A stretch of 64,000 nt of DNA from a virus (IMGVR_UViG_2706796243_000001), one strand, 5' to 3'; numbered from the stretch's first letter, positions 7,721 through 62,299 are shown. Numbers and translations: made by a program. The notes: generated by a model not told the origin, from the sequence alone.

Positions 7721-7735
7721 AACGAGGTTTTAAAA

Positions 7736-8077
7736 ATGGAACTTGCAAATAAATTCTTTTTCCTGGCTGGCGTTTCCGATAATGCAAAATGTGATTTTCG
7801 TCGTTTCGATGATAAAACCTTAATGCGTTTTTGCCATGTTAATGACGCTGTGAACGGGGATCGCCTGGACATTATGATCCGCACGGAAACAACCATTGAT
7901 CACGCATCACAGCAGGCAGTAAAAGATCATTACGTGTCTTATCAGCTTGAAGGCGCGAAAGGCTACGTAAAGCAGGCTGACAGCTTGCCGATCCGTCAAT
8001 CTGTGGACGTGTTCGCCGTGGTTGTTGCGATTGTGAATGATGTTTTTCCGGTTGACTCTGAAAACCAGATCGGCTAA
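7736..8077 (+). CDS. hypothetical protein (113 aa)
   Basis: ACGAGG RBS. Confidence 0.5.
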   Translation: MELANKFFFLAGVSDNAKCDFRRFDDKTLMRFCHVNDAVNGDRLDIMIRTETTIDHASQQAVKDHYVSYQLEGAKGYVKQADSLPIRQSVDVFAVVVAIVNDVFPVDSENQIG

Positions 8078-8131: not shown

Positions 8132-8464
8132 ATGAAAAATAAAAATGTTTATTGGTCATCCTCATGCGGTCGCCTTTGTCTCATCTTTCGGGACCGTGAG
8201 CAGGTAGAAGAGATCGCCCACTCTGGGGACTGTGAAGCGTCAACGGTGGAGGCCCTGCCTTATTTCCGGGACGGCTTACAGTTTAGCGCATACAGCGACC
8301 AAATGATCCGCGATTACCTGGCCGAAACAGGGATCGAGCGTGAAGGGGTAGACGGGATCGACAATATGGATCGCCACACCCTGGAAATGTACCTGCTATG
8401 GATCGCCGCTGGTGATATGCTGGACATTTTCAACGTTGGCGATGATTACGGCGAGGATGAATAA
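8132..8464 (+). CDS. hypothetical acidic protein (110 aa)
   Basis: GGGAAGGTAAAGATTTATG. Confidence 0.5.
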   Translation: MKNKNVYWSSSCGRLCLIFRDREQVEEIAHSGDCEASTVEALPYFRDGLQFSAYSDQMIRDYLAETGIEREGVDGIDNMDRHTLEMYLLWIAAGDMLDIFNVGDDYGEDE

Positions 8465-45140: not shown

Positions 45141-45335
45141 TCAGTGGAATGTCTTTTTGGAAGGACAAGAACCAGCGCCATCCTTAACAAAGGATTCTGT
45201 GCGATTACCATCACTGTAAATGCAGACTTTGGAGCTTCCATCGGTGTATTCGTCCACCAAGGTGAGGGTGTTGACTGTGGCGAATGCCGGGGAAGAGAGC
45301 AGTAATACTGCTATGAAGAATTTTACTCGGATCAT
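45141..45335 (-). CDS. small secreted protein with signal peptide (64 aa; start trimmed)
   Basis: AGGAGA RBS before MIRVKFFIAVLLLSSPAFA; a signal peptide. Confidence 0.4.
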   Translation of the reverse strand: MIRVKFFIAVLLLSSPAFATVNTLTLVDEYTDGSSKVCIYSDGNRTESFVKDGAGSCPSKKTFH

Positions 45336-45398
45336 TTTGTATCTCCTTTTTATATGTTGAGACCCGATGATAATCATCACCGGGCCTTTTGTCAACTG

Positions 45399-46289
45399 TT
45401 ACTTACCTGCTGGCAGAGTAACGAACGGGGCTTGTGCTCCACTGGTCATATATACCGGGGTAACGCCATTCCACTTGTTAATGGCTTCCAGTTGCATGAT
45501 CTCCGGGTTTTTACGCAGAGCATCACCACGCATCTGAATGGATTCTGCTTCACCTTTAGCCAGTGCCACTTTAGCATCGGCCTCGCCCTGAGCTTGCAGA
45601 CGCTTAGATTCAGCTTCGCCGCGAGCGGCTTCGATCTGTTTCTGAGCTTCAGCCTTGGTCTGCTGGATTTCGTTCTCACGCAGCAGAGCTTTCTGAGTTG
45701 CTTCGATCTTCGCGTTGATTGACGCTGTTACCTGCGGTGGGTAAATCAGGTCATCGGTATATGACAGTTTTACAATCACAATACCAATCGGATCAAGCTT
45801 GGACTTAAGCTGCTTGGTAACACGTTCAAGCAACTGACTCTTACCATCACCAGCCAGCGTACCAATGTCCATTGAGCCAGCTTCTTTGATCAAGGCATCC
45901 GAGATATTCTGTCGAATGTTTACATCAGTGATTTCCTGAACACCTTTGCGGTAGGTCTGGAAAATCTTCGTGACCTTGGAGCGATCAACAAAGTATTCAA
46001 CACCGATTTTAGCGGATACCGTCATCGAATCCTTGGTCTGGAAGTTGAACGGCTGCTCGTAGTTATTCAACTGGTTGAATGTCGGGAACTGATAAATCTC
46101 TTCGTTCCAGGTCAACCAATACTTACCAACACCAACTTCTTGCTGCTGGACACCCTTTTCGTCACCATACAGGTCAACCTTTACGCCAACGTAACCCGCA
46201 GGCACGGTGGCACGTTCGCAACCAGTCAGGCCAATTGCACCCAGAGCGATCAGGCCAGCAAACAGTACACGTTTGATATTCTTAAGCAT
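45399..46289 (-). CDS. SPFH/band-7 (prohibitin/HflC-like) lipoprotein
   Basis: Lipobox LTGC after a signal peptide; SPFH core; coiled-coil and Ala/Gln/Glu-rich C-terminus. Confidence 0.75.
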   Translation of the reverse strand: MLKNIKRVLFAGLIALGAIGLTGCERATVPAGYVGVKVDLYGDEKGVQQQEVGVGKYWLTWNEEIYQFPTFNQLNNYEQPFNFQTKDSMTVSAKIGVEYFVDRSKVTKIFQTYRKGVQEITDVNIRQNISDALIKEAGSMDIGTLAGDGKSQLLERVTKQLKSKLDPIGIVIVKLSYTDDLIYPPQVTASINAKIEATQKALLRENEIQQTKAEAQKQIEAARGEAESKRLQAQGEADAKVALAKGEAESIQMRGDALRKNPEIMQLEAINKWNGVTPVYMTSGAQAPFVTLPAGK

Positions 46290-46515
46290 TAGTTTGGTTC
46301 TCCTCTTTGATTTTGTATTCAGTTTTTACGTTTTCGTCAACGTACTCATCAACAATCTTTGCTACGTAAGAAGCAGCAGACTTATTCTTGGAACGGGCCA
46401 GAGCCTGCAACTTTTCCCACGTAGACGCTTTAAGATTTAGCAGCATTAACCCCTCCACGTTTAATAAACACCTTTCGGAGCCAGTACCATACAACAACTG
46501 GGGCGGAGAATACAA
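46282..46515 (-). CDS. hypothetical protein (77 aa)
   Basis: ORF. Confidence 0.35.
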   Translation of the reverse strand: MYSPPQLLYGTGSERCLLNVEGLMLLNLKASTWEKLQALARSKNKSAASYVAKIVDEYVDENVKTEYKIKEENQTNA

Positions 46516-46633
46516 GGGCGAAACCGCCCATGACTAAAAGTGTATCCTTTGCTGAAACCAGAGTCGGTACTGCGAACCCGAAGATGAAGCACAAGAAAAC
46601 AAAAAGTCCAACACCATTCAGGTAATATTTCAT
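46430..46633 (-). CDS. hypothetical membrane protein (67 aa)
   Basis: Two TM helices; lies immediately after the SPFH gene, as HflC/NfeD-like pairs commonly do. Confidence 0.35.
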   Translation of the reverse strand: MKYYLNGVGLFVFLCFIFGFAVPTLVSAKDTLLVMGGFALVFSAPVVVWYWLRKVFIKRGGVNAAKS

Positions 46634-59023: not shown

Positions 59024-59311
59024 ATGGAAAATCCATGCAAGTGGCATGAAGTCCCAGTACGAGATTGCCTTACGTGTAATAACACACCAACAAACCCGTA
59101 TTATATTAAGGAGCCTAAGATGTTTGGACCAGTAATGATGGAGTGCAAAGTCTGTAAACAGGAATTTGAAGCTGATCTTGAGGCCCACGGCCCAGGCGTT
59201 TGCATCATTTCCTTTGGCTGCGGTCATCAGATGAACGCCAGCAAGGATAAAACAGTGTGGGTAAACACTAAAACAGGAAAAATTGATTTGGAAGAGGAAT
59301 CCTGTGCGTAG
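59024..59311 (+). CDS. Zn-finger protein (95 aa)
   Basis: CLTCNN...CKVCKQ...CGH. Confidence 0.4.
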   Translation: MENPCKWHEVPVRDCLTCNNTPTNPYYIKEPKMFGPVMMECKVCKQEFEADLEAHGPGVCIISFGCGHQMNASKDKTVWVNTKTGKIDLEEESCA

Positions 59312-59795
59312 TTTAACGCAAGAGTATCTCAAAACCCGTTTGCATTACGATCCGCAGACAGGCATTTTCACATGGTTAAAAGAGGGTTTTTCAAGAAAGG
59401 AAGACGCTACCCGCCTTGGTGGAACAGAGTGTTCTTGCGTTGGAAAGCACGGTTATGTTGTAATACGTATTGATGGAAAACTATACTTGGCTCATAGACT
59501 TGCATATCTCTATATGACTGGAGAAATGCCTGAATTTGTTGACCATGATGACAGGATAAGGACCAACAATGCGTGGGTAAACCTGAAGAAAGCAACACGC
59601 GAAATGAATAATAGGAATGTCACTGCATCTTCAAACACTGGACATGTTAACATAACGTGGGTTGAAAAACGAAAGCATTATGTTGTGACAATAAAATGGG
59701 GAACTGAAAAACGAAATAAAACATTCAGGAACCTTGATGATGCAATATTTTGGCGAGATAGAGAAAAGGAGATATTGAGTGCGAAATCCAGTTAG
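59283..59795 (+). CDS. HNH homing endonuclease with AP2 domain
   Basis: HRLAYLYMTGEMPEFVDHDDRIRTNNAWVNL (HNH_3) followed by HVNITWVEKRKHYVVTIKWGTE (AP2). Confidence 0.65.
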   Translation: MIWKRNPVRSLTQEYLKTRLHYDPQTGIFTWLKEGFSRKEDATRLGGTECSCVGKHGYVVIRIDGKLYLAHRLAYLYMTGEMPEFVDHDDRIRTNNAWVNLKKATREMNNRNVTASSNTGHVNITWVEKRKHYVVTIKWGTEKRNKTFRNLDDAIFWRDREKEILSAKSS

Positions 59796-59985: not shown

Positions 59986-60065
59986 TTGACAAAAATAGTG
60001 ACCACTGATAAGATCTAAGCTATCGAATCAACTCGAAATTCTTAACAACTTAACGGTAGGTCATT

Positions 60066-60311
60066 ATGTTTAAATTAAAGCTTGTACATAAATCAGATAA
60101 TGGAGAGCACATTGAGCACGAATCACACCACCCAACCCTTGACGAAGCGACTGAAGAAGCTAATGACATCGCTTTTTCTACGACTGGCTTTGGCATTGAG
60201 GCATGGCAATACGTTGCATCCTTCGGAGAAGAAGGCGGCTTATACTATTTCTACCCCGTTGACGGTGATTCCACAATCAAGTACGCTCTCCGAATCTTCC
60301 GGACAGTATAA
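60066..60311 (+). CDS. hypothetical acidic protein (81 aa)
   Basis: GGTAGG RBS. Confidence 0.4.
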   Translation: MFKLKLVHKSDNGEHIEHESHHPTLDEATEEANDIAFSTTGFGIEAWQYVASFGEEGGLYYFYPVDGDSTIKYALRIFRTV

Positions 60312-60375
60312 AAACCGCAAGCAGCGCCGTGCTGAAGCGGCGATTACACGTTCAAAGCGAAAAGGAGTAAAAAGA

Positions 60376-60495
60376 TGAAAGACGAATTTGACGGATTTAT
60401 TGGTTACGGTGAAGGCATTCGCCAGGCTGAAGACGTAGATATTTTCGTAGGTTTCGGAGAGGGTATTTCTTCTGATGAAAGACCAGACCTTTGAC
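60376..60495 (+). CDS. putative 39-aa peptide (not in ORF track)
   Basis: AAGGAG RBS before MKDEFDGFIGYGEGIRQAEDVDIFVGFGEGISSDERPDL; internal GxGEGI repeat. Confidence 0.25.
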
Positions 60496-60730
60496 TCAAT
60501 CTTTGAATTGAGCGACAGAGACTGGCCCACTGATACATTCCGTAATTTTTATTACCACACTGAATGTGATGTGTGCGGCCTTCCGTTCATGGGTCCAAAG
60601 AAGGTAACCACCTGCAATGTTTGTAAACAGAATGTTTCTGTTTCGGACATTTCCTGAAGTAAATTGGGACCTTTTGCAGTAAAATAGATCATGCAGATAC
60701 TACTGCTGCACATAACCCAGGAGAAATAAA

Positions 60731-60970
60731 ATGTTTAAAAAGGCTATTCTTGGCGCGGTTCTGGTAGGGACACTGGCAGTAACTGGTTGCACCAGCCACA
60801 AAACTGAGCGTCTTGAAAAACTGTCAGGCGATGTTGCAACTCTCAACCAGAAAGTTGATCAACTGCAATCTGACGTTGATGTGATGAAGCAGGATGTTCT
60901 GATTGTTCGCGGTGACGCTGCACGAGCTAACCAGCGTCTTGACAACCAGGCGACTTCATATCGCAAGTAA
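60731..60970 (+). CDS. lpp: Braun's (murein) lipoprotein Lpp homolog
   Basis: Signal peptide plus lipobox LAVTGC; mature part reads LSGDVATLNQKVDQLQSDVDVMKQDV...AARANQRLDNQATSYRK. It is collinear with E. coli Lpp, including the C-terminal YRK. Confidence 0.8.
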   Translation: MFKKAILGAVLVGTLAVTGCTSHKTERLEKLSGDVATLNQKVDQLQSDVDVMKQDVLIVRGDAARANQRLDNQATSYRK

Positions 60971-60979
60971 TACCAGAAG

Positions 60980-61009
60980 CACCGGAAATAAAAATCCGGT
61001 GCTTTTTTT
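60980..61009 (+). terminator. rho-independent terminator CACCGGA-AATAAAAA-TCCGGTG + CTTTTTTTC
   Basis: Hairpin plus T-run after lpp. Confidence 0.75.
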
Positions 61010-61020
61010 CATTTTAGGTG

Positions 61021-61049
61021 TTGACAATGGTTTCTTTAACCATTAGTAT
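61021..61049 (+). promoter_or_regulatory. sigma70-like promoter TTGACA-17-TAGTAT driving the tRNA
   Basis: Consensus -35 box, 17-nt spacer and -10 box about 20 nt upstream of the tRNA 5' end. Confidence 0.55.
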
Positions 61050-61069
61050 TCATCTCACCAAGACGGAAT

Positions 61070-61146
61070 GGTTCTGTAGCTTAGTTGGTTAGAGCGCTTC
61101 CCTCATAAGGAAGAGGTCGCAGGTTCAATTCCTGCCAGAACTACCA
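61070..61146 (+). tRNA. tRNA-Met (anticodon CAU; could also be an Ile lysidine type), CCA encoded
   Basis: Cloverleaf: acceptor GGTTCTG/CAGAACT, D-arm AGCTTAGTTGGTTAGAGC, anticodon arm CTTCC-CTCATAA-GGAAG, T-arm GCAGG-TTCAATT-CCTGC. Confidence 0.8.
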
Positions 61147-61159
61147 AACAGGAGATGCA

Positions 61160-61327
61160 ATGAAACGTGTATATGAGTTTTTTGGTATCATTGAAAAACC
61201 AAGTATGTCAGAATCATGGAAAAGCCGATTTGATTCTATCAAGGCAACCTCGGTTCATACATATGATCGTTATGACCTTTCACTCGGTCTTCATAAAGAA
61301 GTGAAAAAAGATTTAAAAAACGATTGA
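61160..61327 (+). CDS. putative 55-aa protein (not in ORF track)
   Basis: CAGGAGATGCAATG RBS; MKRVYEFFGIIEKPSMSESWKSRFDSIKATSVHTYDRYDLSLGLHKEVKKDLKND. Confidence 0.3.
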   Translation: MKRVYEFFGIIEKPSMSESWKSRFDSIKATSVHTYDRYDLSLGLHKEVKKDLKND

Positions 61328-61352
61328 CAAAGGAAGTGAGAGAGTTTAGTAT
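61324..61352 (+). promoter_or_regulatory. sigma70-like promoter TTGACA-17-TAGTAT
   Basis: Same hexamer pair as the tRNA promoter; lies upstream of the basic-protein gene. Confidence 0.5.
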
Positions 61353-61396
61353 TACCAACGTCAACGAGACATTAGCAAATAGAGGAGAAATAAAAC

Positions 61397-61726
61397 ATGG
61401 CTAAGAAAAACGCAAACAAGAAAGTTTCTGCAATCGACGCAATCAAACAGCCGTTCCAGTTTGAGTCCAAGTCTACGCAGACCCACTCTGCCCCTCATGA
61501 TGTTCGTCTGGGCGGTGTAACAAAGACGGTTTCTATTCGTAAGAAGCGTCGTGATGAAGATGGCAACGTTGTATCTATCTGGGAATCAGTTTCCCGCGTT
61601 GAAGGTGGTCAGGTCATTTCTGCCTCACATCGTGTTCGCACTGGCAAGACCAAGCGTGAACGCGCTGGTAAAGCTAAAGACGCTAAGGTTGTTGAAGCCG
61701 TAGCGCCGAAAGGTAAGAAGAAGTAA
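61397..61726 (+). CDS. highly basic Lys/Arg-rich protein (109 aa), possible nucleic-acid-binding or internal protein
   Basis: Strong RBS AGAGGAGAAATAAAACATG; about 25% K+R. Confidence 0.55.
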   Translation: MAKKNANKKVSAIDAIKQPFQFESKSTQTHSAPHDVRLGGVTKTVSIRKKRRDEDGNVVSIWESVSRVEGGQVISASHRVRTGKTKRERAGKAKDAKVVEAVAPKGKKK

Positions 61727-61838
61727 TTCCTCCGGCATGGGGATAGACGAAGCTGGCTGCGGCGATGCGTCTTAAAATAAAGGGCCGTGGCAACCGTGAC
61801 GATCCCGTGCAACGTCTTGAAAAACACGGGCCAGATTC

Positions 61839-61914
61839 GGGGTATTAACACAGCGGTTAGTGTAGCGGCCTCTTAAGCCGAAGGTCGAAGGTTCGAATCC
61901 TTCATGCCCCACCA
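61839..61914 (+). tRNA. tRNA, probable Lys (anticodon CUU), CCA encoded
   Basis: Acceptor GGGGTAT/ATGCCCC (one G-U pair), D-stem ACAC/GTGT, anticodon loop CTCTTAA (one mismatch in the stem), T-arm GAAGG-TTCGAAT-CCTTC. Confidence 0.6.
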
Positions 61915-61935
61915 ACTTTATAAAGGAGCAAATAA

Positions 61936-62124
61936 ATGTTCGGATCTCTGTTACGCATGGCTGGTGATGTTGTTGGTACTGCTGTTGCTGTTACTGCAAC
62001 TGTTGCAGAACCTTTTGTGGATGTCGCAGTAGAGGTTGTTCACGCTGCCGATGAGATGATCGTATCTCCGACCGCAGACGTTGTTGGTGAAGTTTGTGAT
62101 TCTATTAAGGACGTTGTACGATGA
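61936..62124 (+). CDS. hypothetical Val/Ala-rich acidic protein (62 aa)
   Basis: AAAGGAGCAAATAAATG RBS. Confidence 0.45.
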   Translation: MFGSLLRMAGDVVGTAVAVTATVAEPFVDVAVEVVHAADEMIVSPTADVVGEVCDSIKDVVR

Positions 62125-62258
62125 GCGGCGGCATGATTTTTCTGGCAATGCTTGTCATTTGTGCGATTATCATTCTTTGGCATTACTGGTCGTGGTTCGA
62201 AAACAACCCGACAACCGAAGAAATAATCAAAGATTCGCTTGACAAACACAATCTGTAA
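62121..62258 (+). CDS. putative 45-aa membrane peptide (not in ORF track)
   Basis: ATGA overlap with the preceding ORF; MSGGMIFLAMLVICAIIILWHYWSWFENNPTTEEIIKDSLDKHNL. Confidence 0.3.
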   Translation: MSGGMIFLAMLVICAIIILWHYWSWFENNPTTEEIIKDSLDKHNL

Positions 62259-62299
62259 GTGTAGTATTTAAAACCTAATTTAACGCAAAGGAGAACTTA

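Follow-up and report, generated by a model that had tools for sequence, protein, structure and literature searches.

The 79-codon open reading frame that occupies exactly positions 60731-60970 (plus strand, ATG start) of the window, the whole 64,000-nt stretch of viral DNA that was analyzed, encodes a phage homologue of Braun's lipoprotein (Lpp). To judge by its sequence, its product, MFKKAILGAVLVGTLAVTGCTSHKTERLEKLSGDVATLNQKVDQLQSDVDVMKQDVLIVRGDAARANQRLDNQATSYRK, carries all of the determinants for lipidation, outer-membrane sorting, coiled-coil formation and attachment to peptidoglycan. Identification as Lpp is not new, since it was already in the databases through PVP-SE1, and the protein is a divergent member of a well-known family. 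What is new is its place in an apparently old, selectively kept phage Lpp lineage and the setting of that lineage in tRNA regions. The value of the analysis therefore lies in this phage-specific lineage and in a functional question that can be directly tested, and not in the identification itself.

The window corresponds to the end of the genome of Salmonella phage SSE121 (positions 60000-62000 are 100% identical to record positions 143745-145745) and shows ~100% identity to PVP-SE1, which is the type phage of Seunavirus (Vequintavirinae). The product of PVP-SE1 gene 89 is 100% identical to the protein described here and has been labelled "putative major outer membrane lipoprotein" since 2010. 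The same label is found in the GEC_vB_MG and SEW_6S records, the copy in Erwinia phage FBB1 is annotated as 'major outer membrane lipoprotein Lpp', and the SSE121 record itself names the gene "hypothetical protein". Full-text literature searches, whose coverage did not extend to the PVP-SE1 genome paper, returned no functional study of any phage Lpp. The features of the locus were the following:

59986-60014, plus strand: sigma-70-type promoter-like site TTGACA-17-TAAGAT with a TG, upstream of gp92, gp91, gp90 and lpp.
60066-60657, plus strand: three small ORFs (PVP-SE1 genes 92, 91 and 90), co-oriented with lpp.
60680-60689, plus strand: conserved TAAAATAGAT element (TAAWATAGAT), upstream of lpp.
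60692-60710, plus strand: weak 5-bp hairpin in the putative 5'-UTR, in the same place as stronger hairpins in relatives.
60719-60723, plus strand: Shine-Dalgarno sequence AGGAG, 7 nt before the ATG, with GGAG conserved in all aligned relatives.
60731-60787, plus strand: predicted lipoprotein signal peptide (residues 1-19), with the lipobox V-T-G just before Cys20.
60788-60967, plus strand: predicted mature 60-aa lipoprotein, based on the Pfam LPP match, the gap-free Lpp-56 alignment, core identity and the AlphaFold2 helix.
60968-60970, plus strand: stop codon TAA, as read in the sequence.
60975-61010, plus strand: intrinsic terminator with a 12-bp stem (60975-61006), an 8-nt loop and a T-run.
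61021-61049, plus strand: promoter-like site TTGACA-17-TAGTAT of the next transcription unit and boundary of the cassette, conserved in the lpp-less phages GAP31 and 4MG and also in contig L014.
61070-61146, plus strand: tRNA-Met (CAT), the downstream neighbor outside the cassette, 99% identical in lpp-less GAP31.

The preliminary description of this DNA, made from the sequence alone, had proposed an Lpp homologue with an intact lipobox and a C-terminal Y-R-K, and both were recovered. The protein matched Pfam LPP (PF04728) with 75.5 bits and an E value of 4.1e-21 (gathering cutoff, 29.1 bits), over residues 28-79 and model positions 2-53 of 53. The lipobox A-V-T-G-C20, a sequence motif that corresponds to the lipoprotein signal of the Lpp family, is followed by Thr at +2 and Ser at +3, with no Asp at +2, as would be expected of a lipoprotein sorted to the outer membrane. 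The mature part comprises Cys20, predicted to be lipidated, the Thr/Ser pair at +2/+3, a heptad coiled coil at residues 23-78 and the Lpp box, whose six residues, ATSYRK (ATKYRK in the host), end in Lys79; the protein terminates in ...ARANQRLDNQATSYRK. The collinearity with E. coli Lpp claimed beforehand held over 53 residues, which were aligned without gaps to the PDB Lpp chains 9rld and 1eq7 (Lpp-56) with E values of 2e-15 to 4e-15. The heptad coiled coil, the ARANQRLDN block and the terminal Lys were likewise all found in the sequence. An AlphaFold2 single-chain model predicted helices at residues 2-17 (signal peptide) and 23-78, the second one an unbroken helix of 56 residues with pLDDT >90 over most of the coiled coil, and the alignment, the core residues and this helix agreed on a coiled coil of ~56 residues with hydrophobic a/d positions.

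Conservation was concentrated in the core. At the a/d positions of Lpp-56, 12 of 14 residues are the same as in Salmonella Lpp and the other two changes are conservative (Ile->Leu, Ala->Val); the core reads LLVLVLVMVVAALQ, against ILVLVLVMVAAALM. Over the variable N-terminal two thirds, identity to Salmonella Lpp amounted to 8/10 core positions against 10/27 surface positions (Fisher p 0.03). The phage protein thus resembles host Lpp (E. coli) and LppA (Salmonella) in its lipobox signal peptide, heptad count, gap-free alignment, core residues, ARANQRLDN block and terminal Y-R-K, and also in the strong terminator that follows the gene. However, it is only ~55% identical to host Lpp, its mature part has 60 instead of 58 residues, with the two extra ones in the N-terminal linker, its N-terminus reads MFKK and not MNRTK, and VLIVRG stands in place of VQAAKD. 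The gene also belongs to a virulent phage, where NAD-salvage genes, small ORFs and tRNAs surround it, and not to the chromosomal pykF-lpp-ldtE-suf locus. With the NCBIfam model of the enterobacterial chromosomal Lpp (NF011925/PRK15396) it scored 86.5 bits, below the curated cutoff of 108; three other proteins of the phage lineage scored 81-82.5 bits and a host Lpp (P0007) 159 bits. This score below the cutoff indicates a divergent branch and not an orthologue of the chromosomal Lpp.

The segment VLIVRG corresponds to residues 55-60 (window 60893-60910, plus strand). Throughout the Seunavirus-like group, V-L-I-V-R-G or T-L-[IV]-V-R-G replaces the host V-Q-A-A-K-D, which puts hydrophobic residues at non-core positions, and the segment is conserved in P0002-P0004, P0111, P0117, P0120 and P0121. 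The segment might serve to bind a partner or alter how the oligomer packs, and this surface change from QAAKD to LIVRG could reflect a modified function.

In SSE121 the lpp cassette extends from the stop codon of gp90 (60657) to the promoter-like site at 61021. The gene is without counterpart in the close relatives 4MG, GAP31, EC152 and others; in the Seunavirus relatives GAP31 and 4MG, the gp90 homologue runs straight into the promoter of tRNA-Met, and gp90 itself differs from the homologues of these two phages up to the lpp junction. Since such relatives thrive without the gene, lpp must be accessory. Upstream of the cassette, the site at 59986-60014 is a possible operon promoter for gp92-gp91-gp90-lpp, and the same TTGACA-17-TAAGAT(TG) site precedes the gp92 homologue in the diverged relative L014. 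Searches of genes 92, 91 and 90 yielded no Pfam domains and PHROG families of unknown function. The gp90 product (60 aa, 60475-60657, plus strand) contains two Cys-x-x-Cys pairs (CDVC...CNVC), a pattern suggestive of a small zinc ribbon; its match to Pfam C1_1 was weak (E 0.007).

The element TAAWATAGAT was located 43-53 nt before the ATG in every Seunavirus-like lpp locus (61-100% protein identity), and it was kept even in contig L022, where an HNH gene is inserted just upstream. Considered as a repeated phage promoter motif, TAAAATAGAT was neither enriched nor repeated elsewhere in the window. Its role may be that of a -10-like promoter element, or it may mark where the 5'-UTR of the lpp cassette starts; taken with the hairpin behind it, the arrangement may be that of a -10 element followed by a 5'-terminal stabilizing hairpin. 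The hairpin energy was -4.7 kcal/mol in the window (z -0.2, not significant), -17.5 kcal/mol in L022 (z -5.4) and -11.3 kcal/mol in L013 (z -2.9), and RNAalifold gave no consensus structure for the 5'-UTRs of the relatives, owing to indels. At the other end, the strong terminator of its own attributed to the gene was borne out: it folds with a dG of -18.9 kcal/mol (z -6.1), none of 200 shuffled sequences folded as well, and a terminator lies directly 3' of lpp in four lineages (SSE121, L014, FBB1 and L020). The tRNA genes said to be nearby were located as well, tRNA-Met at 61070-61146 and tRNA-Lys at 61839-61914. The motif TTGACA-17-TAGTAT occurs three times on the plus strand within 1.3 kb, at 61021-61049, 61324-61352 and 62239-62267, before tRNA-Met, gp87 and gp84, respectively.

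Since the protein is plainly of bacterial Lpp ancestry, a host origin of this DNA had to be weighed, either as contamination or as a very recent, selectively neutral capture of the host lpp; both had been raised in the preliminary description. By tblastn, the gene was detected at one and the same locus in 14 independently sequenced Seunavirus records with 98.7-100% identity; these are Salmonella and Cronobacter phages from different isolation places and laboratories. The comparison with the nearest hosts gave 55-57% identity to the closest named bacterial Lpps, those of Salmonella, E. coli and Klebsiella, against 61-71% for syntenic orthologues. At the nucleotide level, blastn against 5,426 complete E. 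coli genomes aligned only the last 58 nt (84.5%). The GC content of the gene (47.9%) is near that of the whole window (45.0%). A true host lpp retrieved from IMG/VR as a control (L019) showed the context pykF-lpp-ldt-sufE-sufS and the N-terminus MNRTKLVLGAV, unlike the phage locus. Between SSE121 and EspYZU15/SPLA5a, 15 synonymous changes and a single non-synonymous one (D62E) were counted, with a dN/dS of ~0.02; for more distant lineages dS was saturated, dN was 0.2-0.5 and the C-terminal block was invariant. By these substitution patterns the gene is evidently under strong purifying selection. Contamination and recent capture were consequently ruled out on the 14-record locus, the 58-nt DNA match, the dN/dS and the host-context control, and the probability left to them is negligible. 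Of the interpretation first offered, the phage Lpp homologue with all its sequence determinants stood, but its capture and contamination alternatives did not. An origin from plasmids was also unsupported, the plasmid matches being all host-type Lpp of <=57% identity and mostly mislabelled chromosomes.

Database searches retrieved a set of Lpp proteins that start with MF[KN]K or ML[KN]K instead of MNRTK, and several of these were inspected for the genes around them. Syntenic orthologues with 47-71% identity were found in other phage contigs of ~140-155 kb. The genes of P0003 (67%) and P0121 (61%, carried on the 143-kb contig L021) come, like that of SSE121, after PRPP synthetase, NAPRTase and small ORFs, and P0002 (71%) shows the gene order gp92-gp91-gp90-lpp-tRNA(CAT)-gp87. 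In the relatives with 61-71% identity, lpp keeps its place, with the NAD-salvage genes (PRPP synthetase, NAPRTase) on one side and tRNA genes on the other. P0018, P0006 and P0109 (47-59%) are located in the tRNA clusters of contigs of 153-154 kb that possess terminase and portal genes, the terminase being 76% identical to that of Klebsiella phage FBKp34. A scan of IMG/VR gave two loci only, the bacterial pykF-lpp fragment L019 and the 153-kb phage contig L020, in which the order lpp, tRNA(CAT), gp87 homologue is retained. In the T4-like Erwinia phage FBB1, a copy with 53% identity is flanked by two tRNA(CAT) genes; this Lpp is like that of SSE121 in its location within a tRNA cluster and in the terminator that follows.

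A profile built from the phage-type sequences recovered ~36 clusters at 114-144 bits, above the first named bacterial Lpp (111 bits), and many of them were on contigs of 100-155 kb. A lipobox with Cys, Ser/Thr at +2 and a terminal Lys were present in all of the phage-type sequences (38/38), the Lys usually within Y-R-K or Y-K-K, and RANQRLDN was present in 36 of them. The mature length was 59-61 residues in these 38 sequences and 58-59, mostly 58, in hosts. In a neighbor-joining tree the phage-type proteins were set apart from 21 named host Lpps in 80/100 bootstraps, a result that is suggestive and no proof, since the protein is short and the test is partly circular, the set having been picked in part by profile score; an earlier tree with few sequences gave weak support only for a phage clade. 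These results suggest that the phage Lpp forms a phage-specific branch of the family, and the lineage appears to be old and selectively maintained in several families of large virulent phages, typically in their tRNA regions. Two further Lpp-like clusters, P0126 (49% identity) and P0131 (45%; 203 blocks of the contig collection), were observed amid large ORFs on contigs of 172-335 kb (range for L023-L026, 60-325 kb), and the neighboring ORFs had almost no Pfam, PHROG or phage-database matches; jumbo phages of an unknown kind are one possible identity of these contigs, other elements another.

The surroundings of the gene also bear on its mobility. Between FBB1 and the Seunavirus-like contig L014, the tRNA(CAT) genes downstream of lpp share 95% identity, and the copy in L020 is 80% identical to that of FBB1; the neighboring tRNA-Met of SSE121 is of a different type and is common to lpp-less GAP31. 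The three tRNA(CAT) genes beside lpp (FBB1, contig L012, 5480-5554; L014, 1757-1831; L020, 5521-5595) were called by ARAGORN; their T-loop (GGGGATCGTAACCCC) is unusual and their acceptor stem resembles that of Ile2. An Rfam search that covered FBB1 and L020 gave no tRNA match at the gathering score for either of these two copies. Moreover, a non-coding element of 126 nt is present in FBB1 (L012, 5552-5677) and in the Vequintavirinae-like contigs L006 (6586-6711, 89% identity), L007 and L008 (86% identity over shorter matches). It has a tRNA-Leu-like start (GCGAAATCGGTAGACGC D-arm), a T-arm and acceptor end and a middle insertion of ~50 nt, and could be an intron-containing or degenerate tRNA. 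The sharing of the tRNA(CAT) and the 126-nt element points to exchange of tRNA-region modules, lpp included, from phage to phage.

Other traces of mobile DNA were observed in the region. An HNH homing-endonuclease gene (PVP-SE1 gene 94, ~59304-59795, plus strand) separates the homologues of gp95 and gp93; GAP31, 4MG and EspYZU15 lack it and have the two flanking genes directly next to each other, and further HNH and NUMOD4 genes are scattered round lpp in related contigs. The alignment with GEC_vB_MG, RUS_R7 and SEW_6S (99.8%) ends at ~61883, inside tRNA-Lys (61839-61914), and a tRNA-Thr is annotated instead, which suggests a recombination breakpoint inside the tRNA-Lys gene.

The explanation that we favor, with a little less than even confidence, is that the gene specifies a working Braun-type lipoprotein of the phage-specific Lpp branch that maintains the envelope tether during infection. 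That the protein is a functional peptidoglycan-tethering lipoprotein is probable from its conserved features; that envelope maintenance is the role for which it was selected is a more tentative proposal. The gene would be expressed by means of its strong ribosome-binding site and strong terminator, driven by a host-type promoter, by the conserved element upstream of it, or by both. By analogy with the established biogenesis of Lpp, the precursor would be exported, receive its lipid at Cys20 and be cleaved, all by the host enzymes Lgt, LspA and Lnt after export; since Thr at +2 is no signal for retention in the inner membrane, the Lol system would then carry the lipoprotein to the outer membrane. 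There, alone in homotrimers or together with the host protein, it would form a three-stranded coiled coil with the heptad count of host Lpp, and Lys79 would be joined to peptidoglycan by the host L,D-transpeptidases. Once host lpp expression collapses, the phage Lpp would supply tethers from the outer membrane to the wall and keep the envelope intact until programmed lysis.

In Dickeya, the C-terminal Lpp box is sufficient for attachment to peptidoglycan by L,D-transpeptidases (PMC12274547). With such a box sufficient, the conserved core and anchoring end lead us to infer a tether that is processed, sorted to the outer membrane, trimeric and linked to peptidoglycan, and the strict retention of the terminal Lys (38/38) argues for a tether and against an anti-tether. 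During T4 infection the half-life of the host lpp mRNA drops from ~31 min to 2.3 min (PMC9697503, PMC3014915), a shut-off documented for T4 that is carried over to Seunavirus by analogy. This decay, together with the position of lpp among self-sufficiency genes (tRNAs, NAD salvage), makes tether maintenance the preferred role. Some considerations run the other way. Host Lpp is an extremely abundant and long-lived protein, so an extra supply of Lpp may be needless, which counts against a maintenance role. The lpp-less close relatives, the score below the NCBIfam cutoff and the surface change from QAAKD to LIVRG also weigh against the favored explanation.

An alternative is that the phage protein acts as a modulator, entering heterotrimers with host Lpp or competing with it for L,D-transpeptidases, and so retunes the tethering, for example as a priming of lysis or vesiculation. 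The nearly host-like core (12/14 positions) makes mixed trimers plausible, the conserved surface substitution of VLIVRG for VQAAKD in Seunavirus would fit a changed activity, and Salmonella LppB, which enters heterotrimers with Lpp, lowers cross-linking even when weakly expressed (bioRxiv 10.1101/2025.11.13.688167). Like the phage protein, LppB and E. coli YqhH are second Lpp-family proteins beside a main Lpp, but both work through an altered C-terminus (same preprint): LppB has a penultimate Cys and YqhH no terminal Lys, whereas the phage protein ends in a canonical YRK without any extra Cys, as do nearly all of the 38 phage-type sequences with their Y-[RK]-K ends. The NCBIfam YqhH model gave 39.6 bits against a cutoff of 120. 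Selection preserves the anchoring end together with the core, which speaks against a dominant-negative action like that of LppB or YqhH, and we regard modulation as unlikely. A role in superinfection exclusion or envelope protection, in which an early outer-membrane lipoprotein would block other phages, colicins or lysis-from-without, was given the same low likelihood. T5 Llp and Cor are phage-encoded outer-membrane lipoproteins with exclusion roles and provide the analogy, and the accessory nature of lpp, its patchy distribution in a variable tRNA region and the host-type promoters nearby would suit such a gene. However, the PHROG and Pfam comparisons related the protein to no exclusion lipoprotein, conservation falls on the peptidoglycan-anchoring end and the trimer core and not on a variable receptor-binding surface, and we know of no mechanism by which extra Lpp would block entry.

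A spanin-type lysis accessory was suggested by a weak match (E 1e-5, 26.7 bits) to a PHROG family of Rz-like spanins and by the combination of a lipoprotein with a coiled coil, features that, with the signal peptide, also account for that match. The matches to Lpp were far stronger (188 bits for its own PHROG family and 75.5 bits for Pfam LPP), the locus has neither an adjacent nor an embedded gene for a membrane-anchored partner, so that no i-spanin stands with an o-spanin bearing a periplasmic Cys, and the sole Cys is the one predicted to be lipidated, with no other Cys in the periplasmic part and no Pro-rich segment. T5 Llp, Cor, lambda Bor and the o-spanins are small phage-encoded outer-membrane lipoproteins; unlike the phage Lpp, they have neither a peptidoglycan-linking Lys nor an Lpp coiled coil, and no sequence relationship to it. 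PVP-SE1 has been reported to possess an Rz/Rz1 pair beside its terminase gene (PMC7344957). On the weak PHROG match, the missing partner gene and the Rz/Rz1 pair reported elsewhere in the genome, the spanin reading was dropped as very improbable.

The tether-maintenance explanation acquires its interest from the place of Lpp in the cell. Lpp is the most abundant protein of E. coli and determines how the outer membrane is connected to the wall, how wide the periplasm is and how fast vesicles form. A cross-linkable phage Lpp under purifying selection implies that the state of the tether matters to the fitness of a phage in its lytic cycle; the possible benefits are envelope integrity before lysis, vesicle decoys and exclusion of other phages. 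A wider hypothesis would be that large virulent phages of Enterobacterales keep a distinct, long-lived Lpp lineage (at least ~36 clusters, 1-3 residues longer and with all of the peptidoglycan-linking determinants) that is used to rebuild or retune the tether between outer membrane and wall, and that the gene moves between unrelated phage families in tRNA-cluster modules. Taken in its entirety it is rather doubtful; if true, it would define a class of envelope-maintenance auxiliary genes in phages. The phage variants also constitute a natural set of Lpp proteins for probing trimer specificity and substrate recognition by L,D-transpeptidases.

Additionally, the SPFH lipoprotein and the secreted 64-aa protein mentioned in the preliminary description were both located, in a three-gene envelope cluster on the minus strand (45141-46633):

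46430-46633, minus strand: 67-aa membrane protein.
45399-46289, minus strand: SPFH/Band_7 protein with the lipobox LTGC (Band_7 domain, Pfam E 6e-21).
45141-45335, minus strand: 64-aa protein with a cleavable-looking signal peptide and two Cys.

By its gene content, this cluster resembles an SPFH operon with a small membrane partner. In L021, the 143-kb contig with the 61%-identical Lpp, two more small envelope proteins are encoded in the same region as lpp (7726-7932 and 8176-8346): a glycine-zipper protein of 68 aa (Rick_17kDa_Anti, E 1e-7) and a small membrane protein of the DUF1328 family. Genes for DUF1328 are also present in L002 and L003, and these genes together indicate that several small envelope proteins of host type cluster in the tRNA regions of these phages.
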